A DNA stretch of 64,000 bases, taken from assembly GCA_963837955.1 (NCBI GenBank), contig CAWIPH010000002.1, forward strand, positions 10,966 to 74,965, given 5' to 3'. This DNA is from an uncultured Verrucomicrobiae bacterium (GTDB taxonomy: Bacteria > Verrucomicrobiota > Verrucomicrobiia > Chthoniobacterales > JAFAMB01). The translations under genes and the position numbers were made by a program. The notes under the pieces are model-generated. The model did not search any database and was not told where the DNA came from. It was given only the letters and a program-made list of their open reading frames with translations. Positions 8,256 through 38,716 of this stretch are shown here, piece by piece. Each line of letters begins with the position of its first letter. Positions within the stretch are counted from its first letter, which is position 1.

Positions 8256-8282
8256 GTATTCTTCTCTTCTCATCAAAGGCTG

Positions 8283-12405: not shown

Positions 12406-12415
12406 GTCAGGTCAG

Positions 12416-12482
12416 ATCTATTAAAGAATTAATTGACGTATTTGCTGATCGCGCCTAGCTATCTATTAATTCTTTAATAGAT
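12416..12482. promoter_or_regulatory. AT-rich operator-like inverted repeats abutting the blaI-like start codon
   Basis: ATCTATTAAAGAATTAAT (12416-12433) is the exact reverse complement of ATTAATTCTTTAATAGAT (12465-12482). The proximal site is itself a palindrome (ATCTATTAA-TTCT-TTAATAGAT) and ends 1 nt before the ATG at 12483. Confidence 0.5.
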
Positions 12483-14830: not shown

Positions 14831-14977
14831 ACGTAGCCTGATCCTCCTGGCTCAGAGAGCGTGTCAGTGATCAGTGATTGGTGAGAAGTGAATAGTGGAA
14901 CTTATCGGCAAAATCTTTTGCTAATCACTAATCACCAATCACTCACCCGCACCCTGAGGCTGGAGCATCAGGCTACT
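14831..14977. repeat. MITE-like palindromic repeat element (copy 1)
   Basis: Imperfect terminal inverted repeats are GACGTAGCCTGATCCTCCTGGCTCAGAG (left) and CCTGAGGCTGGAGCATCAGGCTAC (right). The inside holds GTGATTG-type heptamers facing CACTAAT/CACCAAT heptamers. The element ends 1 nt from the stop codon of the Na/Pi gene. Confidence 0.75.
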
Positions 14978-16682: not shown

Positions 16683-16837
16683 ATTGTTTTCAATCTCGCT
16701 AAGGGTTTCTCACACTACATATTGGCCTCTCTATCGGCGTTATGCTGCTCATACCGTGCAGCCACATACCTATTGTAGATTCAGCCGGATTAACAACCAA
16801 CGGCCACCCCGATTAAAAAAATTTAATGAAAGAAGCG

Positions 16838-17009
16838 GACGTAGCCTGATCCTCCTGGCTCAGAGGTACATCGTGTGAGAGGTGAGAAGTGATTGGTGAA
16901 TAGTGGATGCATATCGGCAAGTCCTCGGTAGAAATCCCCATCACCCTTTCACTAATCACTAATCACCAATCACGCGCTGTACCCCTGAGCCAGGAGGATC
17001 AGGCTACGT
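16838..17009. repeat. MITE-like palindromic repeat element (copy 2, near-perfect TIRs)
   Basis: GACGTAGCCTGATCCTCCTGGCTCAGAGG (16838-16866) faces CCCTGAGCCAGGAGGATCAGGCTACGT (16983-17009). The internal GTGAGAAGTGATTGGTGAATAGTGG faces CACTAATCACTAATCACCAATCAC. It has the same orientation as copy 1. Confidence 0.8.
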
Positions 17010-17033
17010 TGCCCAGCACGCCGATACGGCACA

Positions 17034-21429: not shown

Positions 21430-21478
21430 TGCTCCAATCTAAGACTAGGGATGCCGATCACAATGGACCGGATCGATC

Positions 21479-21715
21479 TTATTTCTTCGTAAGTATTTGA
21501 GTGGCGAGATCGAAGACATGGTACATGAACAACCCGACCATCAGAAGCAGATAGACTCGCAGGGAGATGAGTGACCAGCGTACGCTATTGGTCATTTCCA
21601 TTGGCGGGAGATGATCGGACTTGAGCTTCTGCTCCGGAATATCGTCAAGCGGATGCACGACCAGGAAATAATTGTGTTCCTGCGGACTGGGTAGTTGAGT
21701 CGATGATAGAGCCAT
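21479..21715 (-). CDS. Small single-pass membrane protein, unknown function
   Basis: This 78-aa ORF has a C-terminal TM helix (WSLISLRVYLLLMVGLFMYHVF). It is wedged between the NRAMP gene and the two-component genes on the same strand. No family was recognised. Confidence 0.4.
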   Translation of the reverse strand: MALSSTQLPSPQEHNYFLVVHPLDDIPEQKLKSDHLPPMEMTNSVRWSLISLRVYLLLMVGLFMYHVFDLATQILTKK

Positions 21716-21743
21716 AGAGTTCCCTTTCTTAGGTGGTTTGGTT

Positions 21744-23069
21744 TCAGCTGCTGGTCGGGAATAGTTGCGGCGCCATGACTTGGGCGGCCAGGATCAACGA
21801 AAGAGCAAACAGGACGGTGATGATGGTCCAGTTGATGATATTATTCCATCGCTTGTTGACCCATTCATCGCCGAGCAGCTTATGGTCGTTGAGCAGCAGC
21901 TGCAGGAAGATAATCGCCGAGGGGAGAATGATCCCGGCTAACACCTGAACGCCCAGGATAATCAATTGGAGAGGCGCTCCCGGGATCAGAACAATCGATG
22001 CCGCGAGTAAGGTGCAGACCGCGTAGATGCTATAGAAACCCGGAGCATCTTTGAACGACATGTTCAGGCTGTGTTTCCATCCTCGGACCTCGCTGTAGGC
22101 CCAAGCGCTGGACAAGGAGATGGCCGTAGTACCAAGGACGGCGGCGTTGCAAAACATTAGCAAAATGGCATTACGAACGAACTCGTTAGTAAACGGTAGG
22201 ATCGCTTCGGCCATTTTTGCGGGATCCTCATAAGTCAGTCCGTGTTGGTGCGAGACATTGCCAACGATAATCATCGCTCCGGCCACCGTAACAGTGAAAG
22301 TAGCGCCAATTAACGTGTCCAAGCGTGCCCACTTCAGATCCGCAAAGCGCAGTTTTTTATCCGCGATACAGCTCTGCTGAAAGAAGAGCTGCCAGGGCGC
22401 GATCGTCGTACCGACAATAGCGATAACCAAGAAGACAAGGTTCGGGGTGATGCCTCCTGGCGGGATGTTCGGGATGAGCGTGTGACGCACAACCGAGCTT
22501 GCGTGCGGGTGAGAAAAGAACGCGTTGACCAACCAAATAAGATCCAACAAGCAAAGTACGCACGTGATGCGCTCCCAACGTTTGTACCTTTGCGTTATTA
22601 CGTGAATAACCAAGAGGATGGCTGCGATCGGCACCGAAATGTAGGGACTGATTCCCATTTGCTGAGTCGCCAAGGAAATCGCGGCGAATTCGGTTACGAG
22701 GGTTAGGAAATTGACTAGCAACAGGTCGAAGAGCGAGAAGCGGCCCCACCATTTACCAAATCGCTCGTAGATCATCGCGGCGTGACCCTTACCGGTGGCA
22801 ATCCCTAACCGGACCACCATTTCCTGAATGAAGTAGCAGACCGGCAACAGCAGCAGCATCAGCCAGAGCAAATTGAGGCCGTACTGGCCGCCTGCTTGCG
22901 TATAGGTCGAGACGGCGCCGGCATCGTTGTCCGCTTCCATGACGATCAGGCCCGGGCCGAACACCATGAAAAAGGTAAGGATATTCCGCGCCCAGGTACC
23001 CTTCACTCGATACCCCCGGACCGGTGTGCGGAGTTCGTCCGCCGGTCCGCTCTCGGGCACCGGGCTCAT
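21744..23069 (-). CDS. NRAMP/SLC11-family divalent cation transporter with a non-canonical (NRMT-like, Mg2+-type) binding site
   Basis: GPGLIVMEADNDAGAVSTYTQAGGQYGLNLLW aligns with the canonical GPGF..a.iDPGNiatd.qaGa.yGy.LLW, so DPGN becomes DAGA. The TM6 segment GTTIAPWQLFF aligns with the canonical GA.vMPHnlyL, so Ala becomes Thr, Met becomes Ala, and His becomes Trp. A GGAGG motif sits 7 nt upstream of the ATG. Confidence 0.85.
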   Translation of the reverse strand: MSPVPESGPADELRTPVRGYRVKGTWARNILTFFMVFGPGLIVMEADNDAGAVSTYTQAGGQYGLNLLWLMLLLLPVCYFIQEMVVRLGIATGKGHAAMIYERFGKWWGRFSLFDLLLVNFLTLVTEFAAISLATQQMGISPYISVPIAAILLVIHVITQRYKRWERITCVLCLLDLIWLVNAFFSHPHASSVVRHTLIPNIPPGGITPNLVFLVIAIVGTTIAPWQLFFQQSCIADKKLRFADLKWARLDTLIGATFTVTVAGAMIIVGNVSHQHGLTYEDPAKMAEAILPFTNEFVRNAILLMFCNAAVLGTTAISLSSAWAYSEVRGWKHSLNMSFKDAPGFYSIYAVCTLLAASIVLIPGAPLQLIILGVQVLAGIILPSAIIFLQLLLNDHKLLGDEWVNKRWNNIINWTIITVLFALSLILAAQVMAPQLFPTSS

Positions 23070-23296
23070 TGAGCGCCTCCTTCTCTCAGTTCCACGATTG
23101 GATCGAGTCGGTAGTCCGGAACCCCGGCAGCTTGGTTGTCCTCCAGTGGCGTTCTCTCACGGCTCATAATAATTCTCCCTGTTTAATTACGTTACGGAGC
23201 CGCGGGCGAAGCGGCGATAGCGACACAGGGCAATCTGCCAGAGCACGATAAATTTCCGGGAAGCCTGGGATTAAAAATTCTTAATCTTGGGCCAAC

Positions 23297-23481
23297 GACG
23301 TAGCTTGATCCTCCTGGCTCAGGGGGGCGCAGAGTGTGATTGGTGGGGCCTATCGGCAAATCTTCGGCAAAAATCCCCCCACCTCCCTCTCACTAATCAC
23401 TAATTTAGTAAGCGGTCGGCGTACCTGGCGTATCCGATCTCCGGCATCGGCTCCCCGCTTACTAATCTAATCACTGATCAC
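23297..23481. repeat. Truncated/rearranged copy of the MITE-like element
   Basis: The left TIR GACGTAGCTTGATCCTCCTGGCTCAGGGG is present, with GTGATTGG and CACTAATCACTAAT modules. No matching right TIR is found. It contains an extra hairpin, TTAGTAAGCGG...CCGCTTACTAA. Confidence 0.65.
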
Positions 23482-24390: not shown

Positions 24391-24404
24391 AGTTGGACCG
24401 AAGA

Positions 24405-24782
24405 GAAACTCACGCCAAGCGGCGAAAGAATCTCACGCAAAGACCCGGAGAATCTCACGCAAAGACGCAAAGACGCAAAGTTTTGAAAGGGAGTCCGGGC
24501 CGTCGAAAGCCACAGTGATTTGTGAGAAGTGATTGGTGATGGGGTGAAAATCCTCGCAAAGGTAGCGTAGCCTGATGCTCCGCCTCAGGAGATTGGCGCG
24601 CCTTGGATTCCTGAGGCGGAGCATCAGGCTACTCTGGCTTCGTTCCGCCCATAAAACGGCATCGACCGCATTGTCCGCTCAAACTTTGCGTCTTTGCGTC
24701 TTTGCGTGAGATTCGAATAAGGACCGGCGGGAGCCGATCCCTACCGGTCTTGGCGTGAGATTCTTCTTTGCGTGAGATCTCA
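24405..24782. repeat. ~380-bp nested palindrome built from 8-mer, 7-mer and TIR-like modules
   Basis: A perfect 31-bp inverted repeat pairs GAATCTCACGCAAAGACGCAAAGACGCAAAG (24450-24480) with CTTTGCGTCTTTGCGTCTTTGCGTGAGATTC (24684-24714). The central perfect hairpin pairs GTAGCCTGATGCTCCGCCTCAGGA (24567-24590) with TCCTGAGGCGGAGCATCAGGCTAC (24609-24632). GTGATTTGTGAGAAGTGATTGGTGA lies in between, and additional CTCACGC copies lie at both outer edges. Confidence 0.85.
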
Positions 24783-25226
24783 AATCTCGAAGGCCATGAC
24801 GGGACGCTCCCGGCTCTCATCGAGCATATCCTGGATCGATTTATTGCCGAACAGCTCCCGGAGCATTTCCCGGGCTTGCCGGATTACCGGTCGAAGGGGG
24901 CAGCGGAGCGGATCCGGACATCCGCATCGATCGGCCGATCTATCCAAAGCACAAGGCAGAGGAGCGATTTCGCCATCCAACAGTTCGATGATCTGCAACA
25001 TGGTCAATTCTGAGGCGCGTTTGCGCAGGGTATAGCCCCCGCCAACGCCACGTTTGCTTGAGAGAATGCCGTGGTTACGCAGGGCTAACAGAATTTGCTC
25101 GAGAAACTTAACCGGGATGTTACCTCGCTCGGAGAGCTCTTGAATCTGGTGAATTTTGCCGGGGGGATCTTGAGCGATAATGAATAAAGCGCGTAAAGCA
25201 TACTCCGCTTTCCGAGAAATCCGCAT
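24780..25226 (-). CDS. Rrf2-family transcriptional regulator (Cys-rich, possibly Fe-S binding)
   Basis: MRISRKAEYALRALFIIA...IPVKFLEQILLALRNHGILSSKRGVGGGYTL is the Rrf2 wHTH. It has a downstream Cys cluster, PCALDRSADRCGCPDPLRCP. Confidence 0.85.
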   Translation of the reverse strand: MRISRKAEYALRALFIIAQDPPGKIHQIQELSERGNIPVKFLEQILLALRNHGILSSKRGVGGGYTLRKRASELTMLQIIELLDGEIAPLPCALDRSADRCGCPDPLRCPLRPVIRQAREMLRELFGNKSIQDMLDESRERPVMAFEI

Positions 25227-25229
25227 AAT

Positions 25230-25520
25230 CTAATCTCTTCCGTTTTGAGCAGCCAAAGGTTCGCGGCCGTCAAATAGTCGCTCGTAGGTGGCAGCAATGA
25301 CCCGCCAATCGTAATTGGCGCTGACGCTGACGCGAGCCGAATCACTCATCCGCTGCCATCGAGCAGGCGACTTCCAAAGCCGCACGATTTCTGCTGCGAT
25401 CATTTCGCAATTCATCAATCGAGAAGAGTAAACCATTTTCTTGATCTAATACCAGATCAACATTGCCTGGAATACGGCTGGCGACAACCGGTAGACCAGA
25501 CGCAAGCGCCTCAAGTAGAA
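25230..25520 (-). pseudogene. C-terminal remnant of a GT4-type glycosyltransferase (5' part missing, internal frameshift)
   Basis: ORF 25342..25629 reads ...ILLEALASGLPVVASRIPGNVDLVLDQENGLLF, the GT-B C-domain EX7E region. ORF 25230..25436, in another frame, continues with ...IVRLWKSPARWQRMSDSARVSVSANYDWRVIAATYERLF. Upstream of about 25520 the reading frame is replaced by the GGGAACGCC repeat array. Confidence 0.6.
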
Positions 25521-25600
25521 TAACGCCGGGAACGCCGGGAACGCCGGGAACGCCGTTATCGCCGGGAACGCGAAAACCGTGAGAAGTGATTGGTAAGACG
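25519..25600. repeat. 9-bp tandem array (GGGAACGCC) plus heptamer module
   Basis: GGGAACGCC occurs 3 times (25528-25554), followed by GTTATCGCC and GGGAACGCG and then GTGAGAAGTGATTGGTAAG. Confidence 0.85.
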
Positions 25601-25677: not shown

Positions 25678-26898
25678 TTACGATGCGTGCGCGGCGGGTC
25701 TACCGAAGGCGGCCGCCCGAAGCGCCTCCTCGTAGCCGTCAGTGATTCTTTCGAGATCGAACTTCTCCGCTGCAGACCAGCTGGCTTCGCGAATCTGCCG
25801 AAGCCGGTTGGGGTTGGTAAGCAGATCTCTGAGCTTGATGATCCAAGCCCCAGGGTTCTCAAGCGGGAGCAGCCATCCGCTAACACCGTCGGTAACGGTG
25901 TCATGAAGCGTCGGTAAATCTGAGGCGACCACGGCGAGCCCGAACTTTAACGCCTCTAAAACAGCGACAGATAAACCCTCCACCTTAGAGGGGAGAAGAA
26001 AGATGTCTGCCTCAGAGAGAAGCTGGTCGACAGCCTGCCGTGGGACCCAGCCGTGAAAGCGGACCCGACCCGTCAAGCCAGATTGAGCGAGACCCTGTTC
26101 AAGCTTTGGGCGCTCTTCTCCGTCCCCGACGATGTCAAACTCCCAAGTCAGATCCCGTAAGCCGGAGAGGACAGGTATGATGTAGTCCAGGTTCTTTTGT
26201 GGATTGAGCCTGCCCACGAAGATAAGCCTCGGCGTGCTCCCCTTCCGATCAGCGAGAGGTGGGCGCCCATTGAGGGCGATACCATTTGAGATCACGGTAG
26301 GGCTACGTCCGTAGGCCCGGTACGATAAATCGGCCACGAATTGGCTGACGGCGGTCACACCAGCAGCGCGTGACCAGATCGGCCAAATAGCCGGGCCGAG
26401 CCAGCGAAACAGATTGTTCGTTTGTTCCGGCACCGCGCCGGGGACGTCACCAAGATGCGCCGTGATCACATAAGGCAGTCGCCCCAAACTGGCTGCCGCC
26501 AAAGCCACGGCGCCGGTGGGAACCGCAAAGTGCGCATGGAGGACGTCGGGCCTAAACTGCCTCAGATGGCCCAAAGTGGGACCAAAGCTTGTTACGACAT
26601 ATCCGCCCATTTCCAAGGGCGAGCAACGGTCAGGTCGAGAACGGAAACCCCAGGTTCGAAAAACCTCCACTCCGGCGTCAATTTCCTGGCTAGTCTGTCC
26701 GGCCAGACGCACCGTTTGAGCCCGAATATGATGACCACGCCGGGCAAGGGCCTCTGCCACATCTTTTGCGACCCGGCCTCCGCCACCGCCGACAGGAGGC
26801 CACTCGTAGCACAGCACCAGAATCCGCAGCGGGCGCAGCGGATCCTGCGAGAGTGATGTATTGAGTTTTGAGTTTTGAGTTCGGGGTCTTGGGTCCAA
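25678..26898 (-). CDS. Glycosyltransferase family 4 (GT-B)
   Basis: RILVLCYEWPPVGGGGGRVAKDVAEALARRGHHI is the N-domain Gly-rich loop. PSKVEGLSVAVLEALKFGLAVVASD...VTDGVSGWL is the C-domain. The track start is a TTG that lies inside a GAGTTTT heptamer repeat (26863-26881), so the true start is probably further downstream. Confidence 0.85.
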   Translation of the reverse strand: MDPRPRTQNSKLNTSLSQDPLRPLRILVLCYEWPPVGGGGGRVAKDVAEALARRGHHIRAQTVRLAGQTSQEIDAGVEVFRTWGFRSRPDRCSPLEMGGYVVTSFGPTLGHLRQFRPDVLHAHFAVPTGAVALAAASLGRLPYVITAHLGDVPGAVPEQTNNLFRWLGPAIWPIWSRAAGVTAVSQFVADLSYRAYGRSPTVISNGIALNGRPPLADRKGSTPRLIFVGRLNPQKNLDYIIPVLSGLRDLTWEFDIVGDGEERPKLEQGLAQSGLTGRVRFHGWVPRQAVDQLLSEADIFLLPSKVEGLSVAVLEALKFGLAVVASDLPTLHDTVTDGVSGWLLPLENPGAWIIKLRDLLTNPNRLRQIREASWSAAEKFDLERITDGYEEALRAAAFGRPAAHAS

Positions 26899-28079: not shown

Positions 28080-29933
28080 TCACCCCGCCGGCACCATCTC
28101 TGAATGAGCTAACAGCCACGCGCACCACAGCATTCCACGGTCATCCCTTTTCCCAGCCTGGTGTTCCGATAACCGCCCCTTTATCCATTCCCAATCCAGC
28201 ATGGATGGCGATGAGCTGCTGGCAAAACGCAGATCACCAGACTGGAACCAGCGTCCGATCGGAACCCCGAATCCTTTCTTTGGCCGATCAATGATGGCAT
28301 CCGGAACAAGTCCGCGCACGGCCTTTCTCAAAAGATGCTTGGTGGTTCCGCCGCGGAGTTTAAAAGAACTCGGAATCCGTCGGACAAAATCCACAACATT
28401 GACGTCCAGGAACGGGCAACGCACCTCCAAACCATGGGCCATGCTGGAGCGGTCCACTTTGACCAGAATGTCGTCTTGTAAATAGAGTCGGATATAAAAT
28501 TGCATGGTCCGCTCGACATCGTTCTGCGCGGTAGATTCGTTCCAGGCTTCGGTGGCTTCAGAGTAAAGTTCTTCGGTGTCAATTTTTTGCCGGAACAGCC
28601 GCCCTATTTCGTCTGGGTCGAGCGGTCCCATCCACGCCGGCATCCAATGGGACCTATGGTATGACAGACCTCTCAAGGTACGTTTCACGCGAAAATCTAA
28701 ACTCATATTCACGTGAGAGACCGGCATGTGTTCGACCGCCATCCGCGCCGTCCGATGCACAAGCTGGGGAACGAGTTGCTGGTAGGGGACCGCGAAGCGG
28801 AGAGCACGGAACGGATCATAGCCGGCAAACAGTTCATCGCTGGCGTCGCCGGTCAGGACTACCTTGACGTCTTGCCGCGCGAGTTGGGCCACCAATCCAG
28901 TCGGCAGGATCGAACTGTCACCCATGACCTCATCCAGCTGTTTCGAGGTAGCCGAACACAGCTCCAGACAGCGCTCGATCGAGAATATTTCTTCTCTGTG
29001 CTTAGTACCGGCGGAAGTAGCAGCCAACCGGGCATAATCACGCTCATCGAAGCTCTTTTCAGTAAAACCGATGCTGAACGATCGGATCCCCTGGTGATGA
29101 CGCGAAGCGAGCTTAGCTACTAACGTGGAATCGATACCTCCGCTTAAGAATAGACCTACCGGCACATCCGCATTGAGGCGAACTCGCACAGCCTCATCCA
29201 ACAGGCGGATTAGCTCGGCTCCCCACTGTTCTTCCGCATCCTTTGGAACGGTGGCAAACGGAGCGAACTGAAATTCCCAATACTTGACGATTTTTGGGAT
29301 AAGATCAGAGACCGAAATGCGCAACCAATGCCCGGCCGGAAGTTTTCGTACTCGGGCGAGCATCGTTAGCGGTGCTGGTATAAAACCGTAAGCGAAGAGC
29401 TTTTGCAGAGCTACCGGATCTAACGAAGCTGGAACTCGCGGGTGTTGGCGCAGTGCGGTGAGCTCTGAAGCGAAAGCAAAACAGCGCTCATCCGAGTAAT
29501 AGAATAAGGGTTTTTTACCAAATCGGTCGCGGCTCAAAAAGAGTTCGTTCTTGGCCCGATCGAAAATGGCGAATGCCCACATGCCGTTGAGCCGGTCGAG
29601 CATGGCCGGTCCCCACTCCCGGTATCCATGCAGCAGAACTTCGGTATCCGAATGATCGGTCTGAAATCGATGTCCTGCCTTTTCCAGCTCCTGGCGGAGC
29701 TCGACATGATTGTAAATTTCGCCGTTGAAGGTGATCACCAACGCCTCATCGGCGGTTTTCATCGGCTGACTACCGCCGGCGAGATCGACAATCGAGAGAA
29801 TTCGGTGCCCGAAAAAGACCTGATCTCCAGTCCAGAATCCTTCGCCATCCGGACCGCGATGATTCACTCGAGCCGTCATCCGGACCAAGTCCTCGCGGTT
29901 TCCTTCTCCAACGAATCCGGCGATCCCGCACAT
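28080..29933 (-). CDS. Asparagine synthase (glutamine-hydrolysing) family amidotransferase
   Basis: It has the family start MCGIAGFVG (ATG at 29933), the PP-loop SGGIDST, and a length of ~617 aa. The 44-codon upstream extension in the track ORF is a translation of the repeat array. Confidence 0.9.
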   Translation of the reverse strand: MCGIAGFVGEGNREDLVRMTARVNHRGPDGEGFWTGDQVFFGHRILSIVDLAGGSQPMKTADEALVITFNGEIYNHVELRQELEKAGHRFQTDHSDTEVLLHGYREWGPAMLDRLNGMWAFAIFDRAKNELFLSRDRFGKKPLFYYSDERCFAFASELTALRQHPRVPASLDPVALQKLFAYGFIPAPLTMLARVRKLPAGHWLRISVSDLIPKIVKYWEFQFAPFATVPKDAEEQWGAELIRLLDEAVRVRLNADVPVGLFLSGGIDSTLVAKLASRHHQGIRSFSIGFTEKSFDERDYARLAATSAGTKHREEIFSIERCLELCSATSKQLDEVMGDSSILPTGLVAQLARQDVKVVLTGDASDELFAGYDPFRALRFAVPYQQLVPQLVHRTARMAVEHMPVSHVNMSLDFRVKRTLRGLSYHRSHWMPAWMGPLDPDEIGRLFRQKIDTEELYSEATEAWNESTAQNDVERTMQFYIRLYLQDDILVKVDRSSMAHGLEVRCPFLDVNVVDFVRRIPSSFKLRGGTTKHLLRKAVRGLVPDAIIDRPKKGFGVPIGRWFQSGDLRFASSSSPSMLDWEWIKGRLSEHQAGKRDDRGMLWCAWLLAHSEMVPAG

Positions 29934-29940
29934 AAACTCA

Positions 29941-30136
29941 GCCCATACCTGTGGCGGGGGGAAATAGCAAATAGCAGATAGCAGGGGGGAGAGAACGCCG
30001 GGAGCGCACGGGAACGCCGGGAACGCCGGGAACGCCAAAGCCAAACACCAAACGCCAAACGCCAAACGCCGCGATATCGGCAGCTAATCGGCCGTTTAAC
30101 CTGTATTCCTTTGCGCCTTTGCGTCTTTGCGTGAGG
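29941..30136. repeat. Intergenic spacer composed almost entirely of concatenated short tandem-repeat modules
   Basis: AAATAGC/AGATAGC occurs 3 times (29962-29984) and G(G/A)GAACGCC-type 9-mers occur 5 times (29991-30036). CCAAAC(G/A) occurs 4 times (30041-30068) and CTTTGCG(N) 8-mers occur 3 times (30108-30131). The array ends in GTGAGG directly at the stop codon of the next gene. Confidence 0.9.
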
Positions 30137-31183
30137 TTATTGTCGCTTCCAGGCTTCGAAGATCTGCAGAAACGTCTCTTCCAGTCCCTTGGTGATATCC
30201 CAATTCGGGTAATGCGAACGCATCTTCGATAAATCGGAGATATAACAGATGTGATCACCCCGCCGATTCTGATCGATGTATTCGTACGACATCTGTTTGC
30301 CTGAGATTTGCGCGATCAGATCGAACGCTTCCAGGATCGAAATCGAGTTGCGGCGACCGCCACCGAGATTATAGACCTCACCAATGCGGGGTTGTTGGAT
30401 GAATTCATTCATGAACCGAGCCACATCCAAAGAATGGATGTTGTCGCGGACCTGTTTCCCTTCATAACCGAAGATCTTGTAGGTTTTTCCTTCGACGTTG
30501 CATTTAATCAAGTAGCTGAGGAAACCGTGGAGCTCGACCCCGCAATGGTTCGGCCCCGTGAGGCAACCTCCCCGCAAACAACAGGTCGCCATCTGAAAAT
30601 AGCGGCCATATTCTTGGACCATCACATCGGCTGCTACTTTGGAGGCTCCGAAGACGGAATGCAGACAGTGATCGATCGGAAAACTCTCCCTGATTCCATC
30701 GGCGTATTCTGCGTCGGCATAATCCCAACGGGTTTTCTTTTCGACCAGGTTGAGCCGATTCGGGCCATCGCCGTAAACTTTATTGGTAGACATATGAACG
30801 AACGGCGCCTCGGGACACCATTGCCGGGCCGCCTCGAGCAAATTGAGTGTACCGACTGCGTTCACATCGAAATCGTCGAAAGGACGCGACGCAGCAAGAT
30901 CATGGCTTGGCTGAGCGGCGGTGTGGATGACAGCGTCCGGCCGGATCTTTTGAACCAGTTGGAGCACAGCGTTGCGGTCACGGATATCAACTTGATGATG
31001 ATGAAAACATTCAAAAGTCGTCCGGAGTCGCTGCGTGTTCCAGGAAGTGTCCCCCGGCGGACCAAAGAATTCGGCTCGCAGATTATTCTCGATCCCATGG
31101 ATCTCGTTCCCTTCGCGAGCGAAGAAAGCGACTACCTCGCTGCCGATTAGACCGCTGGATCCGGTTACAAGTAGTTTTTTCAC
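30137..31183 (-). CDS. NAD-dependent nucleotide-sugar epimerase/dehydratase (extended SDR)
   Basis: It has [18 protein letters not shown] (GxxGxxG), the catalytic YGASKVAAD (YxxxK), and a length of 348 aa. Overall it resembles the CDP-paratose-2-epimerase-like subgroup. Confidence 0.85.
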
Positions 31184-31233: not shown

Positions 31234-32196
31234 TCAAGGCCCAATGATCGCGTCGCGATGCTGCATTAACCCGCGGGTAAAATTATGGTTATGGATTGGT
31301 TTAAGAATTTCGAGAACGCCCGCCAGTAAGTCATTGTCGATTGGCTCATTCGCAGCAGCTATGTTTTCCCGGATTTCGTTCGCGCGCGTTGTACCGACCA
31401 AAGTAGTAGCAATGTCGGGATTTGCGCAGCAGTATTGAACAGCGAGTCGGACGATATTCACGCCTTTCGTCCTGCAGTGTTCGACTGCCTTCCGGCATCT
31501 TTCCCGAATTGTTTCACTGGCGGGATGCCAGTCGGGTGCACCTCGCTCTGTGAGCAATCCCATGCCGGTCGGAGCGGCATTGATGATACCCACGCCTTTC
31601 GCTTTCAGGTAAGGGATCAGGTCCAGAAGTGAATTGTCGTTTAACTGATAATGGCAAAACGACAGAATGGTCTCTACGGTACCGGATTCGACCCGATTCA
31701 GGATGCTCGGGAAAATTTTCAGGGGTAATCCGGTAATGCCGATATGACGAACAAGCCCTTGCTTCTTCAGGTGCTGTAGCGCAGGCAAGGTTTCCTCCAC
31801 TATCTGGTCATGATCGGCGAACTCGATGTCATGACACTGAATCAGGTCGATATATTCGACCCCGAGACGTTTTAGGCTGTGCTCGACACTGCGTTCCGTG
31901 CTCGCGCGCGAATAATCATAATCCCCCCGCGCCTCGCTATAGCTGCCAATCTTGGTGGCGATATAGTAGCGCTCCCGAGCGATGCCTTGAAGGGCCCGGC
32001 CCAGATTCAATTCCGCCGAAGTTTCACCGTACGCGGGGGAGACATCGATCAAATTGATGCCACCATCGATCGCGACATGCACGGTCTCGATGCACTCGTC
32101 CAGCTTCGCCCCGCGAAACACTGCTCCAAATGCACAGGTGCCAAAGCCCAGGCGGGAAACATTGAGTTCGGTAGCTCCGAGTTTGTTATATTTCAT
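31234..32196 (-). CDS. Aldo/keto reductase family oxidoreductase
   Basis: MKYNKLGATELNVSRLGFGTCAFG...INLIDVSPAYGETSAE...GLVRHIGITG is the typical AKR pattern. The protein is 320 aa. Confidence 0.85.
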   Translation of the reverse strand: MKYNKLGATELNVSRLGFGTCAFGAVFRGAKLDECIETVHVAIDGGINLIDVSPAYGETSAELNLGRALQGIARERYYIATKIGSYSEARGDYDYSRASTERSVEHSLKRLGVEYIDLIQCHDIEFADHDQIVEETLPALQHLKKQGLVRHIGITGLPLKIFPSILNRVESGTVETILSFCHYQLNDNSLLDLIPYLKAKGVGIINAAPTGMGLLTERGAPDWHPASETIRERCRKAVEHCRTKGVNIVRLAVQYCCANPDIATTLVGTTRANEIRENIAAANEPIDNDLLAGVLEILKPIHNHNFTRGLMQHRDAIIGP

Positions 32197-32325
32197 CTCG
32201 GTTGAAAGAGCGCCGGCGAGAGATTTGCGGCTGGGGGTTTAAATTCACGTACTGAGATCCCTCCGCCTTTCCAGGCGTGGTAAACGAAATTGCATCGGGC
32301 GATGGGGATTATGACAAACGCCTAA

Positions 32326-33744
32326 TTGTGCGCTGCCGGAATTAATTTGGGTATCTCGCGTCACAGCAGAGCATCTAATAGCAAGAAAGAGCTACGAAAC
32401 GATGCCGAGATACTTGAACAAATCGCGACAAACATCCTGCGACTCATCTTCTCAACTGAATATCCGAAAAATATGGTAGGAAGCCCTTTGCTAATTGCAG
32501 AAAAAGCCCGGATTCGACTGCAGTCCACCGTCGCGTCGCTCCGCGAAGGCCGGCCGACGAATCTAAACGTGATTCGGCTGCCCGATCCGGCGGATGTCGT
32601 CATTACGCCCTGTGAAGTCAATGAGTTACATGGAACGGGAACTTTGCTGCTGAGAATATTTAAGGATTCTTCCTCGATCGTTTCATTGCGGACGAGCAAT
32701 TTTTACGATCTCCCGCAGAGTTTCGGCGCCGCAAACTTCTGCTTGCCACTGGCCCAAGCTTCGCGTGCCGAAGTGCTTTCCTGGGTCAAATGGTGGCTCA
32801 GCACGACTTCTGTGCGCCGCGCTGTCTGCCTGCCTTATCTCCCGGCAGATCCTATCGTCGGTATTACCGTCAAAGAACTGTTCAATGTCCCGTTATGTAC
32901 CTACATCATGGACGACAAGAATGTCTGTGCGCAGGGAATTCCCGATGCCCTGATGGAGGAGTTGCTCGCGAAATCGGATCTGCGCCTGGTGATCTCACCG
33001 GAAATGCGTGAGGCCTACGAAAAGAAGTACCGAATGAAGTTCTGTCTGATGCCTCCGCTCGTTTCCGATAAATTGGTTAAGAGGGAGGCGGCTCCGTACT
33101 TAAATGGAGTTAAGCCTGGGCGTTCCGTTCTGATAGGTAATATTTGGGGGCAGCGATGGCTAGATTTACTGCGGAGCACGATTCGCAACAGCGGTTATCA
33201 AGTTGATTGGTATTGCAACCAGAAAAACCCGAGGGCCCTGATTTTCGACCGCCATGAACTGGAAAAGGATGGCATTCGGCTGCTTGATCCGCTCTCGGAA
33301 TCAGAACTTCCGGCGGTTCTTGCGCAGTATGCAGTCGCCATTGTGCCGTCCGATACGCTCGACGGAAGAAGTGCACCGAGTGTGCAGGCAATAGCGGAGT
33401 TGAGCCTACCGAGCCGGATTCCCTTCGTCGTCGCAACGTCACATCTGCCAATTCTCGTAATTGGACATCCAGGAACTTCCGCCGCTCGCTTTGTGGAGCG
33501 CTTTAAGCTCGGTGAGGTTGTTCCCTATGATGCCGATGCTGTGCGAAGCGCTCTTGCACGCCTTTCGAAGCCCGAAACTCAAACACTCACCAGGAGCCGC
33601 GCGGCAGCGCTCAGTGCTAGTTTTTCAGCTCGCGGTTCTGCCGATTGGATTTGGCGTTCGTTGGAAGCGGGCGAAGCCTGCGACCTTCGGTACGAAAAGC
33701 TGATGCCCCCTTCCAAGAATGGGAATTCTCCACATCACCACTGA
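32326..33744 (+). CDS. Uncharacterised protein, paralog A of a triplicated family (possible GT-B-like fold)
   Basis: It shares blocks with 46722..48126 and 58815..60005. The blocks are EVNELHGTGTLLL, IMDDKNV, LSLPSRIPFVVATSHLPILVIGHPGTSAARFVERF and ADWIWRSLEAGEACDLRYEKLMP. The track start is a TTG, and the ATG at 32473 is the more likely start. Confidence 0.6.
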   Translation: MCAAGINLGISRHSRASNSKKELRNDAEILEQIATNILRLIFSTEYPKNMVGSPLLIAEKARIRLQSTVASLREGRPTNLNVIRLPDPADVVITPCEVNELHGTGTLLLRIFKDSSSIVSLRTSNFYDLPQSFGAANFCLPLAQASRAEVLSWVKWWLSTTSVRRAVCLPYLPADPIVGITVKELFNVPLCTYIMDDKNVCAQGIPDALMEELLAKSDLRLVISPEMREAYEKKYRMKFCLMPPLVSDKLVKREAAPYLNGVKPGRSVLIGNIWGQRWLDLLRSTIRNSGYQVDWYCNQKNPRALIFDRHELEKDGIRLLDPLSESELPAVLAQYAVAIVPSDTLDGRSAPSVQAIAELSLPSRIPFVVATSHLPILVIGHPGTSAARFVERFKLGEVVPYDADAVRSALARLSKPETQTLTRSRAAALSASFSARGSADWIWRSLEAGEACDLRYEKLMPPSKNGNSPHHH

Positions 33745-33749
33745 ATTTT

Positions 33750-34782
33750 ATGAGCGAATCCGTTGACACCCAGGCTATCTACGAGCTGGAAAGCATTCTT
33801 CAGTCATTGGTGGTGAATGATACAACGCTGCTCGACGCGCTGGCCCAAATGCTCAATGCCATGCAACAGATGCAGGCCAGGAGTGAACAGAGCCAGGACA
33901 AGCTGTGTGCAGAGCTCCAAGAACTCCGCGCGGAACTGCGCACGTTGACGCTGGAAGTAATAGAAAGAAAGGCAGATGCAGTATCCGGGCGACAACCGAT
34001 CGTCGTGACAAATGACGAGTTTGCCGCCCAGAATCCAGAGCTTGGTTTGCTTGAGTATTTGTATTCCTTCTTGACCGATACGAACGCAATCGATGTCGGC
34101 GCCAACATTGGAAAAGTATCAGAGCGGCTCTTGAAATGCGGCTACACTGTCTACGCATTCGAGCCATATAGCTCCTTCGTTTCGAGAATTGGTGGAAAGG
34201 CATAAGGCGAGTCAGAAATTTCATCCATTCAATTTGGCACTCGGGGCGGTCGACAGAACGATGGATCTCCACGTCGCCTCGGACTTGTCAGGACTTAGCA
34301 AATGGGACCCGACTCTTTTTCATAGCTTGATTGAGCGGCCGATGTTGCAAGATCTGCAGTTTACCAAGACTGTTCCCGTCGAAGTCCGCAGCCTGGAAAG
34401 CTTACGCCAAAATGGGGCGATTCCGCCTACGGCCGGCGTGCTAAAGATCGACACAGAAGGGTTCGATCTGGAGGTCATCCGCGGCATGGGAGAGGGTAAT
34501 TTTTCGGCCGTGATGGCTGAGTTTTGGGATCCGGCACATCCTTTTGGCGGCCAGGCCACAGGTGGACTGGAGGGTCTTGTCCGAGAAATGAAAGGCAGAG
34601 GGTATGCCTCGCATATAGTGATCTATCACTTAGACGAAGACTCGACGATCTCCTACTATTGTAACCGCTCCGAAACAGTCCCTAATTCATGGGGCAATGT
34701 AATTTTCTTCCGTGATCATGCCCTTTTCGCGAAAGCGCTTCGCTGGTGTGAAGAGGTGCTTGTAGCCACGTTACATAGGTGA
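33750..34782 (+). pseudogene. Coiled-coil + FkbM-type methyltransferase, split by a 1-nt frameshift at about 34188
   Basis: The N-terminal part is a coiled coil (LAQMLNAMQQMQARSEQSQDKLCAELQELRAELRTL) followed by AIDVGANIGKVSERLLKCGYTVYAFEPYSSFVSR and then a stop. The next frame continues LVERHKASQKFHPFNLALGA...VLKIDTEGFDLEVIRGMG. The intact paralog at 54578..55513 is collinear across this junction. Confidence 0.65.
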
Positions 34783-34888
34783 TCAGACAAAGGCGGATAC
34801 AATCGGTCAATAGCCACAAATAAGATGCTGCGTTCGAAATCGTAAGCCGGAGCGCCTCTGCACATTTTGGAAGCGGGATCAACGGGTC

Positions 34889-35638
34889 GTGAATCTCAAT
34901 AATTTAGTACTTTGTTGCGGAATGATCCGTTCAGCATCAACGCTGCAATATCAAGTCGTTGCTGACCTGATTGAGCGAAACGGTCTTGGCCAACGGATCG
35001 GGTTTGCGGATCGGGAAAGCCTATCCGAAATCGTGCAAAGGTTCGAAAGGGTGGAGGGTTTCGCGATAGTTAAGGCTCATGAGATCTTGCCACTAGTCGA
35101 TGCACTCATCGCGCAAGGTCGCATTCGCCTCTTTTACACCTTTCGCGACCTGCGCGCAGTTGCTCTTTCGGTAATGCGAAAGTGGGAGATTCCATTTGCA
35201 CAGGTGATTGGTCGAAACGCCTGGCTCGACACTGCAGTCCAATCTTCTAACCATTGGCTTTCCGTCCCCGGTGTCTGCGTAAGCCGCTATGAAGACATGG
35301 TGTTGAGACTCCCGACCGAAGTCACGAAATGGGCAGACGCTCTTGGCCTAAATCTTACTTCTACCCAGGCTGACGAATTAGCAGCCAAATATTCTATCGA
35401 GGCGCAGCGGGAGCGAGTTCGCCAGGCGCGTAACCCAAAGTCAACTCAAATGAGCGAATCGAACGATTTCTTTGATCCCAATAGTTTGCTGCATCACAAC
35501 CACATACTGGACGGGTCCTTAGACGGATGGAAATCAGGACTCGAGAAATGGCAGATTCGCCAAATTGAAGGTCGGTTCTCCAGCTGGTTGTTAGATCATG
35601 GTTATCAATTGAGCACTAGTGCTCCGGTACTGAGCTAG
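34889..35638 (+). CDS. Sulfotransferase-like P-loop protein (Stf0/Sulfotransfer_3-like)
   Basis: LCCGMIRSASTLQYQ resembles the 5'-PSB loop (RSGSTL). FYTFRDLRAVALSVMRK resembles the 3'-PB motif (RDPRdvavS). The later SRYEDMV is also consistent. Confidence 0.6.
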   Translation: MNLNNLVLCCGMIRSASTLQYQVVADLIERNGLGQRIGFADRESLSEIVQRFERVEGFAIVKAHEILPLVDALIAQGRIRLFYTFRDLRAVALSVMRKWEIPFAQVIGRNAWLDTAVQSSNHWLSVPGVCVSRYEDMVLRLPTEVTKWADALGLNLTSTQADELAAKYSIEAQRERVRQARNPKSTQMSESNDFFDPNSLLHHNHILDGSLDGWKSGLEKWQIRQIEGRFSSWLLDHGYQLSTSAPVLS

Positions 35639-35640
35639 CG

Positions 35641-36411
35641 ATGAGCCAACCCACACGGCCGATGCTGCTCGACGTCCAAAATTTGACGAAAACATTTGGA
35701 AACTTCAAAGCGGTTGACGATGTGTCGTTTTTCGTTCGCCCCGGGGAAGTAGTTGGTCTGCTTGGTCCCAGTGGCGCCGGCAAGACCACCACCATCCAGA
35801 TGATTCTTGGATTGATTTCGCCCAGTGCAGGCAGCGTCCGAATCTTTGGACAACTCTTTGAGAAGAACCGTCAACAGATCCTCGAAAAAGTCAGCTTCAC
35901 GGCGCCGTACGTCGCCTTCCCGATCCGGCTCACGGTGTTCGAAAACCTAATGGTTTTCGCCCGCATCTATGATGTTCGCGATCCTGAATCAAAAATCATG
36001 GAATTGCTGCGGATGTTCTCGATAGAGGACCTCAGGAACAAACCAGTTTCTCGTCTTTCCTCCGGCGAGAACACGCGAGTCGGACTTTGTAAGGCGTTGA
36101 TGAACGATCCGAAGTTACTGGTGATGGACGAGCCGACTGCTTACCTCGATCCTCAAGTAGCGCTTCAGGTAAAGAATATCCTCCTCGATTTGCAGCACCG
36201 TTACGGAACAACGATTCTCTACAGCTCCCACAACATGGCCGAGGTGGAAGAGATGTGCAGCCGGATCATTTTTCTTAGCCGTGGCCGGGTGCTTGCGAGC
36301 GGCAGCCCCATAACAGTTACCCAGAGCATCCTGAAAGAGAATCGTCGGGAACCGGCGCTTAAAGAAGTGTTTCTACACGTCGCGAGGAGACGGCTGAATG
36401 AAACTAAATAG
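35641..36411 (+). CDS. ABC transporter ATP-binding protein (ABC-2/DrrA-like)
   Basis: It has Walker A GPSGAGKTT, the signature LSSGENTRV, and Walker B LLVMDEPT. Its end overlaps the permease start. Confidence 0.9.
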   Translation: MSQPTRPMLLDVQNLTKTFGNFKAVDDVSFFVRPGEVVGLLGPSGAGKTTTIQMILGLISPSAGSVRIFGQLFEKNRQQILEKVSFTAPYVAFPIRLTVFENLMVFARIYDVRDPESKIMELLRMFSIEDLRNKPVSRLSSGENTRVGLCKALMNDPKLLVMDEPTAYLDPQVALQVKNILLDLQHRYGTTILYSSHNMAEVEEMCSRIIFLSRGRVLASGSPITVTQSILKENRREPALKEVFLHVARRRLNETK

Positions 36412-37612
36412 AATCAAGGCCATAATCTTCCGGCACTCTTGCGAAGGGAGACGCAATTTGAGCCGGGTCACCGAGATGGTGTATTGGCCGGTGCAGAACA
36501 TCGTTGTCTGGGGGTTTTTCACAATTTATCTTACCCGGGACAACCACCTGCAGCCGGGAATAGTTAGTTTTCTCTTAGGTGCGGCCATTCTGTGGGGGAT
36601 GTTCTATGCATTCCAGCGTGATCTGGCGGCGGGCTTCCTCGAAGAACTCTGGTCTCGAAACCTCATCAACTTATTCTCTACGCCGCTGAGCATCTCCGAA
36701 TATTTGACCGGCCTCATCATTGTCAATCTGGTCAGAGCCATGGTGGGAGTTCTGGCAGCGGGCCTAACTGCGTGGCTCTGCTTCGGCTATGAAATCTCCT
36801 CGAAACTGTTAGCAGTTATTCCCTTTATGTTGAGTTTGACTCTCTTCGCGCTCGCTGTCGGTGTGATAATTACCGGTCTGATTGTCAGGTATACCACCAA
36901 GATCCAGACGCTGGCCTGGAGCTTTGCTGGCTTACTGATGCCGTTCTCGTGCGTATTCTATCCTTTTAGCTCTCTTCCCAAATGTTTGCGTCCGGTCGCC
37001 TGGGCTCTTCCCACTACTCATGCTTTCGAAGGGATGAGGCAGGCAATCGCCGGAGGAGGCTTTGCGCTGCCGCATTTCGAGTGGGGGATTATGCTAAATG
37101 CGTTCTATCTGGTGTTGGCTGTCCTGGTGTTTCGCCGGATGTTTGAATCTGCACGTGCCCGAGGTCTGCTTAGTAAAGCTAGAGTAGGGAACGTTGGGAA
37201 CGCCGGGAACGCACGGGAACGCCGACAACGCCGACAACGCCGACAACGCCGACAACGCCGACAACGCCGACAACGCCGAGAACGCCGAGAACGCCGAGAA
37301 CGCACGGGAACGCCGGCTTGTCCGACGACCGTGTCCGACGAAGCTCCTCCGCTACATCGGCGACGTTCCAAGGATCAGCGAAGTCGGAAGCCTGCCGGAG
37401 TTTCAAACGACGGAGCGAAGTTGGAGAGCGCATTTTTCGGTAGTGCCAGAAATGTGTTGCCAATCGCGAGCTCCTCTGTAAAGAATCGCCTCTGCTGCGC
37501 AACCCTCCGCGCGCCGGCAATCGGTTTCTCGGGGAATCGGCTATGGACCAGTCCATCATATTGCACAGCCATGTGCCAAAGACGGCGGGCACCAGCGTTT
37601 CGGCGCATCTAG
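36398..37612 (+). CDS. ABC-2 type transporter permease; the conserved part ends at about 37180 and the ORF then reads through a 9-bp repeat array
   Basis: About 260 aa are polytopic membrane protein (...WALPTTHAFEGMRQAI...LVLAVLVFRRMFESARARGLLSKA). This is followed by GNVGNAGNARE(RRQ)x6(RRE)x3 and ~95 aa of Arg-rich, non-protein-like sequence. That tail overlaps the next gene start at 37543. Confidence 0.7.
   Translation: MKLNRIKAIIFRHSCEGRRNLSRVTEMVYWPVQNIVVWGFFTIYLTRDNHLQPGIVSFLLGAAILWGMFYAFQRDLAAGFLEELWSRNLINLFSTPLSISEYLTGLIIVNLVRAMVGVLAAGLTAWLCFGYEISSKLLAVIPFMLSLTLFALAVGVIITGLIVRYTTKIQTLAWSFAGLLMPFSCVFYPFSSLPKCLRPVAWALPTTHAFEGMRQAIAGGGFALPHFEWGIMLNAFYLVLAVLVFRRMFESARARGLLSKARVGNVGNAGNARERRQRRQRRQRRQRRQRRQRRERRERRERTGTPACPTTVSDEAPPLHRRRSKDQRSRKPAGVSNDGAKLESAFFGSARNVLPIASSSVKNRLCCATLRAPAIGFSGNRLWTSPSYCTAMCQRRRAPAFRRI
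37187..37314. repeat. 9-bp tandem repeat array
   Basis: The order is GGGAACGTT, GGGAACGCC, GGGAACGCAC, GGGAACGCC, GACAACGCC x6 (37224-37277), GAGAACGCC x2, GAGAACGCAC, GGGAACGCC. It belongs to the same unit family as 25528-25572 and 29991-30036. Confidence 0.95.
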
Positions 37613-38387: not shown

Positions 38388-38397
38388 TCCGAGGATA

Positions 38398-38715
38398 AAA
38401 TCTCACGCAAAGTCGCAAAGGCGCAAAGAATGGGAGGCGGAATCCAGAATGTTTGGCACAGAAGTAAACGGAGATAACGGTTCGGCTGAGCCGTCGGGCG
38501 GCTCCACTCGAAGCCAATCTATCTCCCCGGTCACCTTCAATTCAAAATTCGTCTTTGCGCGAGGCTTTAACGGATTTCCGTACTGCGCGTTCCCTCGCAC
38601 TTCTCACCAATCACCTCTCACCAATCACATTGGCTTCGACCGGAGCTCAGCCGCGCCTTTGCGTCTTTGCGTGAGATTTTCTAAGTCCGTTCTCCTTTGC
38701 GCCTTTGCGTGAGGC
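38398..38715. repeat. Modular inverted-repeat element filling the intergenic spacer
   Basis: AAATCTCACGCAAAGTCGCAAAGGCGCAAAG (38398-38428) faces CCTTTGCGTCTTTGCGTGAGATTT (38655-38678) and CCTTTGCGCCTTTGCGTGAGGC (38694-38715). The heptamer module CACTTCTCACCAATCACCTCTCACCAATCAC lies at 38598-38628. Confidence 0.85.
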
Positions 38716-38716
38716 T

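Follow-up and report, generated by a model that had tools for sequence, protein, structure and literature searches.

Several described systems place short tandem repeats or small palindromes between bacterial genes, and we compared them with the intergenic repeats of a 64-kb stretch of verrucomicrobial DNA (the window, meaning the whole stretch analyzed), in particular with those in the spacer between an asnB gene and a CDP-paratose-2-epimerase-like gene (the focal spacer). The short tandemly repeated repetitive (STRR) sequences of heterocystous cyanobacteria have 7-nt units such as CCCCAGT, TTGGTCA, and CAACAGT. Homing endonuclease genes and the 23S rRNA intervening sequences that bear an open reading frame (ORF) have a small ORF in the loop of an inverted-repeat stem, and are patchily distributed and transferred. 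Repetitive extragenic palindromes (REPs) conserve the tetranucleotide GTAG at their 5' ends. REPs are 20-30 nt long, occur extragenically in many copies as singletons and as inverted doublets (REPINs), and depend on a repeat-flanked RAYT gene (Bertels and Rainey 2011, PMC3116915). TAACTGA direct repeats are found in Beggiatoaceae, Cyanobacteria, and Bacteroidetes, and horizontal transfer was proposed for them with no mechanism (MacGregor 2015, PMC4679880).

The window holds transporters and a surface-polysaccharide locus (asnB, the CDP-paratose-2-epimerase-like gene, GT1, GT2, and GT4 glycosyltransferase genes, rmlA, an ABC-2/Wzm-type exporter, and DegT), and the best homologues of its proteins, with the members of their 90%-identity clusters, are from Chthoniobacterales or Verrucomicrobiota. 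Tandem Repeats Finder (TRF) called 18 rows of period 7-9 in the window, covering 571 nt; in 50 simulations under a first-order Markov model the mean was 3.6 rows and 66 nt and the maximum 8 rows, and arrays of 7-9 nt are about five times commoner in the window than in simulated sequence. A first-pass annotation had described the focal spacer as a concatenation of tandem modules that recur elsewhere in other combinations and orientations with higher-order inverted symmetry. TRF found every array listed there and recurrences of the units across the window (Table 1), and the inverted symmetry was seen as a perfect 34-nt pair in the composite hairpin E4 and in the hairpins at 14833-14976 and 16839-17009 (E1 and E2). 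The accompanying proposal of one family of freely interchangeable modules was not supported, as the modules are heterogeneous: the arm of a cassette that carries a GxxExxY gene, the interior of GTAG-ended hairpins, and three locally expanded arrays. The joint reading that we prefer, with a probability of about 0.55, is that several selfish palindromic families populate the spacers, that the octamer arms among them are gene-less derivatives of the GxxExxY cassette, and that the repeats serve as joints of rearrangement.

An octamer arm was defined as 2-4 units of NC(G/A)CN(A/G/T)(A/G)G that end in CTCA or, read on the opposite strand, in TGAG, and five sites in the window have this form. When one genome per species was scanned with the pattern CTTTGCGNCTTTGCGTGAG, at least 119 genome stretches matched, where about 17 matches would be expected by chance in the whole collection by our own estimate. 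The matches were from at least ten phyla: Acidobacteriota (mostly Pyrinomonadaceae), Planctomycetota, Verrucomicrobiota, Cyanobacteria (Nostocales), Chloroflexota, Bacteroidota, Desulfobacterota, Pseudomonadota (including Parabeggiatoa), Nitrospirota, and Spirochaetota (Leptospira). A collection of phage contigs gave 63 matching stretches, with 3-5 copies in some contigs. The modules are thus not confined to the window, which supports the first-pass annotation on this point, with the CTTTGCG module in these genome and phage stretches and AAATAGC and GGGAACGCC at the orthologous site in a relative. The arm consensus was (A/T)TCTCA followed by CGCAAAG-N-CGCAAAG-N-CGCAAAG, about 27 nt, and exactly three units were present in 165 of the 246 arms found and two units in 71. 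This fixed number of units indicates a defined unit of about 27 nt and not a free-running microsatellite. In 67 of 83 inverted pairs CTCA was outward and in 16 TGAG was inward, while 80 arms were solo; the spacer between paired arms had a median of 30 nt (range 4-425 nt) and a sequence not conserved between genomes. A single arm had no structure of its own (fold z = +0.9), whereas arm pairs formed near-perfect stems (z = -15 to -17).

These properties bear on the proposal that all the arrays are slipped-strand microsatellites that arose in place with no mobility or protein, their resemblances being convergent, which we regard as very unlikely. An identical 19-mer in more than 100 species and at least ten phyla, against the roughly 17 matches expected, rules out convergence; the length of the arms is fixed at 2-3 units; and they form inverted pairs that bracket one gene family. 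In addition, the 9-mer arrays at 29993 and 37196 (the latter within 37187-37316) share the irregular stretch GCACGGGAACGCC, and so are related copies and not independent events. Pure slippage is refuted for the octamer arms and true for array expansion, as the focal spacer illustrates below. The arms have features in common with the TAACTGA repeats, both being short tandem units in distant phyla, mostly intergenic and by start codons, and Parabeggiatoa, Nostocales, and Bacteroidota have octamer arms as well. Unlike the arms, TAACTGA repeats have another unit sequence and length and are essentially without an inverted partner or an associated gene (PMC4679880).

The finding of a decayed PDDEXK_3 gene in L254, a relative of the window, led to a tblastn search of all loci for this family. 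Intact GxxExxY genes (TIGR04256, E ~1e-38 to 1e-44; PF13366) were within ~100 nt of arms, or exactly between them, at 7 of the at least 119 genome loci, in 6-7 phyla: Nostoc (L037), Pirellulales (L068), a deltaproteobacterium (L101), Spartobacteria (L031), Pyrinomonadaceae (L098), Bacteroidetes (L077), and an alphaproteobacterial metagenome-assembled genome (MAG; L005). The Nostoc locus reads arm, 4 nt, ATG to TAA, 45 nt, arm. The Pyrinomonadaceae gene occupies the loop of a hairpin with TGAG inward (GTGAGataaattcc-ATG ... TAA-aaatttCACGCAAAG), and hairpins of this family that lack the gene have the sequence GTGAGAT(T/G)(G/A)ATTTTCTCGCAAAG. The two GxxExxY copies of the deltaproteobacterium were considered as a transposition, which was rejected as they are a segmental duplication. 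GxxExxY was the sole recurrent cargo between arms, which otherwise flanked ordinary neighboring genes.

As a reciprocal test, 80 GxxExxY loci were taken from metagenomes by protein similarity alone, which removed ascertainment bias, and 72 of these had adequate flanks. A generalised arm detector placed inverted arms on both sides of the gene at 47 of the 72 loci (30 in the order F-gene-R, 11 R-gene-F, and 6 both), on one side at 21, and on neither at 4. By comparison, 59 control segments from the same loci had inverted arms on both sides in no case, on one side in 5, and on neither in 54. The unit variants counted were CGCAAAG (228), CGCCAAG (63), CGCAGAG (45), CGCGAAG (26), and CGCTAAG (20).

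The GxxExxY protein has 125 aa and is of the PD-(D/E)XK type. The seven proteins are 51-74% identical across phyla (Nostoc versus Pyrinomonadaceae, 74%), D67 and E77-x-K79 are invariant in them, and the family has more than 8000 homologues. An AlphaFold (AF2) model (pLDDT 82.9) suggests a minimal PD-(D/E)XK core, a search of solved structures by sequence gave no match, and PADLOC reported faint Cas4 similarity only. The only functional statement found for PF13366 lists it as 'Unknown ... multiple transfers, mixed clades' (PMC3424549). No description of the association between octamer arms and GxxExxY was found in the searchable literature, although absence there is not proof. Based on these comparisons of sequence, we infer a mobile unit in which the octamer arms would be the terminal inverted repeat of a widespread, horizontally transferred GxxExxY mini-cassette.

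Turnover of the elements was apparent when the window was compared with its relatives, which were among 340 loci in all: L254 (a 14-kb metagenome contig with 80-83% DNA identity, syntenic with window 14.3-28.4 kb), L120 (a Chthoniobacterales MAG syntenic with window 31250-37180 at 70-84% amino-acid identity), and L257 and L258 (metagenome contigs with epimerase genes 82% identical to that of the window). This comparison, which the first-pass annotation had proposed, showed that the relatives have different hairpins in orthologous spacers and share the arrays in part. In the spacer between the NaPi and P-type ATPase genes, the window has E2 (16828-17030) and L254 has two unrelated hairpins, one with ends CATTCTCGCCTCAGGCTCGAATGA and (GATAGCC)x4, and alignment of the flanks extends as far as the edges of the elements. 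The convergent spacer that holds E1 has an element of ~480 nt with CGCAAAG arms in L254 instead. The rmlA gene and the element E3 in the Rrf2-Nramp spacer are in the window and absent from the orthologous spacer of L254, and a decayed GxxExxY (PDDEXK_3) cassette between degenerate arms is in L254 and not in the window. A CGCAAAG composite orthologous to E4 was present in the Rrf2-Nramp spacer of L254, directly after the Rrf2 stop in both sequences.

Three breakpoints coincide with arrays: the move of a GT2 gene relative to the focal spacer, a truncated GT1 gene, and the end of synteny with L120. L254 has an intact GT4 gene with Rrf2 directly next to it; the window keeps the last ~290 nt of the orthologue (aligned at 25227-25520), cut exactly at the GGGAACGCC array, and the frame of this GT1 fragment (25345-25527, minus strand) matches Pfam Glycos_transf_1 at profile positions 106-141 of 172. 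Synteny with L120 stops at 37180, exactly at the 14-copy array. The ABC-2 permease ORF there (36398-37612) has 404 aa versus ~262 aa in 120 of the 120 best homologues, as its natural TAG (37185-37187) is one base out of frame and the ORF continues for 142 codons through the 9-mer array (...GNVGNAGNARERRQRRQ...), which reflects a genuine frameshift or fusion, or else an error of sequencing within the repeat. The intergenic location claimed for the modules was right in that they are essentially extragenic, but the array at 37187-37316 is not cleanly intergenic because this ORF reads through it, and 25519-25600 abuts the glycosyltransferase pseudogene fragment.

In the focal spacer, 28 nt separate the asnB ATG (29931-29933) from the first array, a stretch conserved in the relatives, and (GCTATTT)x2-3 is ~30 nt upstream of this ATG in the window, L257, and L258 alike. 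Beside the GCTATTT array, L257 has GGCGTTCCCGTGCG(C/T)TCC. The copy number of GGCGTTCCC upstream of asnB is ~2 units in L257 versus ~5 in the window; the irregular unit GGCGTTCCCGTGCGCTCC is common to both, and the extra perfect units of the window are distal to it. Such variation in copy number between relatives at an orthologous site is what defines a slippage microsatellite, and it was observed here in arrays of 9-mers and 7-mers, whereas the octamer arms keep to 2-3 units. AAATAGC and GGGAACGCC appear to have been inherited as arrays upstream of asnB and then expanded locally, differing from the relative mainly in copy number, and the GGGAACGCC unit has probably been shortened to give CCAAACG. 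Slippage is consistent as well with the runs of unit variants in the 14-copy array, which are typical of it, and with the heptamer-rich long simple sequence repeats of scattered bacteria (Mrazek 2007, to the extent that it is summarised in PMC4679880).

At the other end of the focal spacer, a solo arm ends at 30135, which is 1 nt before the stop codon of the epimerase gene (30137-30139). The claim that the modules directly abut start and stop codons needs a small correction for this CTTTGCGTGAG arm, and the first array is 28 nt, not 8, from the ATG. After the epimerase stop, L258 has a CGCAAAG-type arm with its partner 300 nt away (an inverted pair of ~330 nt), and L257 has a CGTCCT hexamer hairpin instead of an octamer arm. 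Next to its GCTATTT array, L258 has a hairpin with (AAATAGC)x3 arms. The gene order in both relatives is epimerase, variable insert, GT2, variable insert, asnB, and the window has nothing of the insert-GT2-insert block between its epimerase and asnB genes; the orthologous GT2 gene (81% identical in nucleotides, 90% in amino acids) is at window 38717-39805, beside the octamer-armed element E6 and 8.6 kb from the focal spacer. The focal spacer has no inverted symmetry, its predicted RNA fold is less stable than that of shuffled sequence (z = +1.9), and a scan of it for promoters and terminators gave nothing above the shuffled background. Since it consists of half-elements and expanded arrays, with no RNA structure or signals, the spacer is best read as a junction and not as an element, that is, as the apparent scar that a rearrangement left in a variable locus for glycan synthesis.

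We also considered whether the arms and arrays are host regulatory signals selected at gene ends, such as terminator or stabilizer hairpins, RNase III sites, or protein-binding repeats; binding sites for a conserved RNA- or DNA-binding protein were proposed for the TAACTGA repeats of Beggiatoaceae (PMC4679880). In genomes and in compact phage contigs, arms were found at 1-50 nt from a stop codon or immediately upstream of a ribosome-binding site, which would suit such a role, as would the extreme stability of the arm pairs, the arms being near consensus and weakly coordinated with their partners, as expected of a protein-binding site, and the position of the AAATAGC array upstream of asnB, which is kept in three relatives. 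Arms were inside long ORFs in 48% of cases in genomes versus 86% for random positions, with a weak contrast in phage contigs (73% versus 84%). However, the elements in the orthologous spacers of close relatives are unrelated, so that no given element is needed at a given gene. Solo arms are unable to form a hairpin, the focal spacer lacks significant RNA structure and promoter- or terminator-like features, and arrays are on pseudogene ends and synteny breaks. The Rfam covariance models gave no match to the window repeats at the gathering score and only spurious miRNA hairpins below it. A regulatory origin would also leave the constant small nuclease cargo unexplained. We therefore consider regulation unlikely as the explanation of these repeats and possible as a secondary role. 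The Rfam result, and a search of the literature in which no paper printing these arrays was found, agree with the earlier remark that this is not a described repeat family.

A third alternative is that the hairpins are REPs or REPINs moved by a RAYT whose gene is elsewhere in the genome, and that the heptamers and octamers in tandem are only decoration. E1 to E3 and the inner hairpin of E4 begin with GTAG and are extragenic inverted doublets comparable in size to REPINs, which have been reported from many phyla (PMC3116915). E1, E2, the inner E4 hairpin, and the octamer arm pairs are short, imperfect extragenic palindromes in inverted doublets that form hairpins. The GTAG start is that of the GTAGCCTGAT hairpins, whereas the octamer arms start with CTCA and are tied to the 125-aa PD-(D/E)XK gene rather than to a RAYT, that is, a Y1 transposase, of which there was none among the window ORFs scanned. 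The octamer repeat is itself three tandem octamers with the same sequence across phyla, unlike REPs, which are species-specific. The GTAGCC terminal repeat was in 0 of the 340 other loci. This alternative is quite unlikely for the repeats as a whole and possible for the GTAG hairpins only. The GTGATTG/TCACTAA heptamers are the inner arms of these lineage-specific GTAG-ended hairpins. E1 and E2 have arms of 52-71 nt, and the DNA fold of E1 had z = -7.0. E4 (24400-24785) is predicted to fold as RNA into nested hairpins at -210.7 kcal/mol (z = -16.6).

The resemblance to STRR sequences that the first-pass annotation had noted is one of form, as both have tandem 7-nt units in few copies that are extragenic, dispersed, and often near gene ends. 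It does not extend to organism or units, by which these repeats are not STRR sequences. The host here is a verrucomicrobium and not a heterocystous cyanobacterium, the units are AAATAGC, NNNGTGA, and CCAAACG with 8-mers and 9-mers, the heptamers make up inner arms within larger hairpins, and the module with the clearest definition is a gene-tied octamer. HIP1 (GCGATCGC) occurs once in the 64 kb, so the window is not from a typical cyanobacterium, and a cyanobacterial origin was dropped on this count. An assembly artefact was rejected because independent metagenome contigs bear elements of the same kinds.

Returning to the selfish palindromic families, we speculate that the parent of the octamer arms is a mini-cassette with ~27-nt ends of CTCA and (CGCAAAG N)x3 and the 125-aa GxxExxY / PD-(D/E)XK gene as its sole cargo. 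The gene-less hairpins and solo arms would be internally deleted, non-autonomous derivatives, as miniature inverted-repeat transposable elements (MITEs) and REPINs are of their parents. The nuclease may recognize paired or extruded arms and cut there, and repair may then copy the element into gene ends and hairpin loops, the latter resulting in nested hairpins. The heptamer blocks would belong to the lineage-specific, REPIN-like GTAG hairpins, and the AAATAGC, GGGAACGCC, and CCAAACG arrays would grow by replication slippage. Under this model, the focal scar would join a solo octamer arm left at the epimerase stop with long-standing arrays upstream of asnB. Transcribed arm pairs would give very stable stems, and in DNA the repeats could be portable homology for deletions, translocations, and gene truncations, in which case the arrays would cause rearrangements rather than mark them.

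Similar to MITEs, the proposed derivatives are non-coding, of 60-500 nt, retain nothing of a gene-bearing parent but its terminal inverted repeats, and show nested insertions; octamer arms were found both with and without GxxExxY genes. These are not classical MITEs because there is no target-site duplication by eye and no classical transposase, the cargo of the parent being PD-(D/E)XK_3 / GxxExxY, and their internal sequence is not conserved even within one genome. Free-standing homing endonuclease genes and the ORF-bearing 23S rRNA intervening sequences are alike in having a small ORF in the loop of a long stem and a patchy distribution, and differ in that the proposed target here is a dispersed repeat and not a conserved gene, and homing by GxxExxY would be by analogy.

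Several points weigh against this reading. Neither a GxxExxY gene nor a remnant of one turned up when all six frames of the window were searched with an HMM (nothing at E <= 10), so the arms of the window were counted as gene-less derivatives, and a trans-acting copy elsewhere in the source genome is assumed. By tblastn there was no GxxExxY gene in the phage loci. The reciprocal test was limited to one GxxExxY subfamily (at least 57% identity to the query). The best fold matches to the GxxExxY model, Cas4 (E = 2e-3, TM 0.52) and lambda-exonuclease-type enzymes, were all weak, and it may be that the nuclease is only carried along, or is a host factor, and is not what mobilizes the element. Coordination between the two arms was modest: the variable base between units was complementary in 54% of 122 pairs versus 34.5% (sd 3.9) for shuffled partners, a modest sign of common origin or pairing, and a crude test of arm-versus-partner identity found no excess over arms from other loci. 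No clean empty-site insertion was caught, as both relatives carry something in every spacer compared, and no target-site duplication was seen by eye in the flanks of E1, E2, E4, and loci such as L008.

We propose tentatively, as a possibility short of an even chance, that GxxExxY with its tandem-octamer arms represents a previously unrecognized class of minimal selfish element, one that would move between phyla and with phages, would home into gene ends and the loops of hairpins, and would give rise to huge numbers of gene-less hairpins that remodel intergenic DNA and act as recombination joints in variable loci, this glycan cluster among them. The GxxExxY / PF13366 family is very large, has no assigned function, is named by NCBI in many genomes, and would gain a testable role as a nuclease that acts on its own arms. 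The cassette would explain intergenic hairpins that break metagenome assemblies and mislead gene callers (the 142-aa false extension of the ABC permease) and would let such hairpins mark points of rearrangement in surface-polysaccharide loci. For an older puzzle, the short tandem repeats common to unrelated phyla, it also suggests a mechanism that can be tested.

Table 1. Repeat features of the 64-kb window.
Feature	Position (nt)	Strand	Remark
(AAATAGC)x3.1	29962-29983	.	TRF; 28 nt upstream of asnB ATG
(GAACGCCGG)x4.8	29993-30036		TRF
(AACGCCA)x5.9	30031-30070		TRF
(CTTTGCGT)x3.0	30109-30132		TRF
(GGGAACGCC)~5 running into (CCAAACG/AACGCCA)~6	29993-30070	.	Common AACGCC core
Solo 'R' arm, (CTTTGCGN)x3 + TGAG	30109-30135	+	Gene-less half of octamer-armed hairpin
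Composite nested hairpin E4	24404-24782	.	3 nested CTCACGCAAAG/CTTTGCGTGAG arm pairs
E4 arms, 34 nt, 100% complementary	24450-24483 / 24681-24714
E4 interior, GTGA-heptamer block	24508-24545
E4 interior, inner GTAG hairpin	24559-24640
Octamer-armed element E6	38397-38716	.	Abuts stop of translocated GT2 gene
E6 F arm	38397-38428
E6 R arms	38653-38680, 38694-38716
E6 TCAC-heptamer block	38593-38628
(GGGAACGCC) array + GTGAGAAGTGATTGG heptamers	25519-25600	.	At cut end of GT1 gene fragment
14-copy 9-mer array (GGGAACGCC, GACAACGCC, GAGAACGCC)	37187-37316	.	Begins at ABC-2 permease natural stop
GTAG-ended hairpin E1	14833-14976	.	Terminal repeat GTAGCCTGATCCTCCTGGCTCAG; (NNNGTGA) heptamer inner arms
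GTAG-ended hairpin E2	16839-17009	.	E1 family
Partial GTAG-family element E3	23300-23480	.	Small hairpin inside heptamer array
(TTGAGTT)x3 heptamer array	26861-26881	.	TRF; near 5' end of GT4 gene
Isolated TCAC-heptamer block	6472-6509	.	From last 19 nt of glyoxalase-family ORF (6008-6490) into spacer
Octamer arms by definition	24429-24480, 24684-24776, 30109-30135, 38399-38428, 38649-38716
Recurrences of spacer units	24457/24684, 25522-25571, 37187-37316, 38406/38653/38694		TRF
Heptamer arrays	14864, 14921, 16949, 23390, 26861		TRF

All of the sites named by the first-pass annotation were real, and two were missed by it (23300-23480 and 6472-6509). Within E3, a hairpin (TTAGTAAGCGG...CCGCTTACTAA, 23406-23468) is in the TCACTAA heptamer array and looks like a very small inserted element; insertion of tiny elements into heptamer arrays has been reported for the small dispersed repeats of Nostoc. 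A JGI metagenome contig of 1825 nt (3300063339, L253) that is 98.7% identical to window 21472-23296 ends just before E3 (23300), consistent with repeats breaking short-read assemblies. Other tandem modules of 7-9 nt were beside octamer arms in other phyla and phage contigs (L025, L089, L115, L127, L161, L167, and L169). A scan of the phage contigs with AACGCCGNNAACGCCGNNAACGCC was uninformative on the 9-mer module, since the matches were almost all coding repeats (Ala/Asn-rich or collagen-like). In Dolichospermum sp. FACHB-1091 (L056, 5509-5932), an 81-nt segment made up of a gene's final 42 nt with the stop codon and a single octamer arm is repeated six times in tandem just upstream of hypF.

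The relatives have a second family of hairpins (L254 10446-10645 and L258 7260-7445) with ends CTCATTCTCGCCT(A/C)AGGCTCGAATGA and inner arms that are heptamer arrays and differ between the two copies, (GATAGCC)x4 versus (AAATAGC)x3; the heptamers of the L258 copy match the array already present upstream of asnB where this copy is inserted. A near-palindrome rich in AT, ATTAAAAA(A/T)T(T/C)TTAAT, was found at 16814-16830 and 23268-23286, ~135-210 nt upstream of the Na/Pi cotransporter and Nramp transporter genes. It is conserved in L254 (~11075-11090 and 4160-4180), is possibly a shared operator or promoter element, and has GTAG hairpins inserted just past it. The dispersed motif (T)GTCCGACGAAGC / TGTCCGACA is at window 37317-37345, 10686-10700, and 10820-10835 and in spacers of the relatives (L254 ~1105-1125; L257 3370-3965 and 12560-12585), often as inverted pairs, and looks like a further REP-like family of these Chthoniobacterales.

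The remaining observations concern other parts of the window. At 11898-12367 there are 2-3 tandem copies of a unit of ~221-283 nt that are 80-88% identical, with ORFs that have no Pfam match. Next to this region, a BlaI/Penicillinase_R repressor gene begins within an AT-rich inverted repeat of 27 nt (12410-12488), which is probably the operator of that gene. The adjacent short-chain dehydrogenase genes at 6610-7359 and 7518-8276 have 81-89% DNA identity, which indicates a recent tandem duplication. Lastly, tandem repeats of 21 nt at 46803-46885 (4.0 copies) and 55376-55415 (1.9 copies) are unrelated to the modules.

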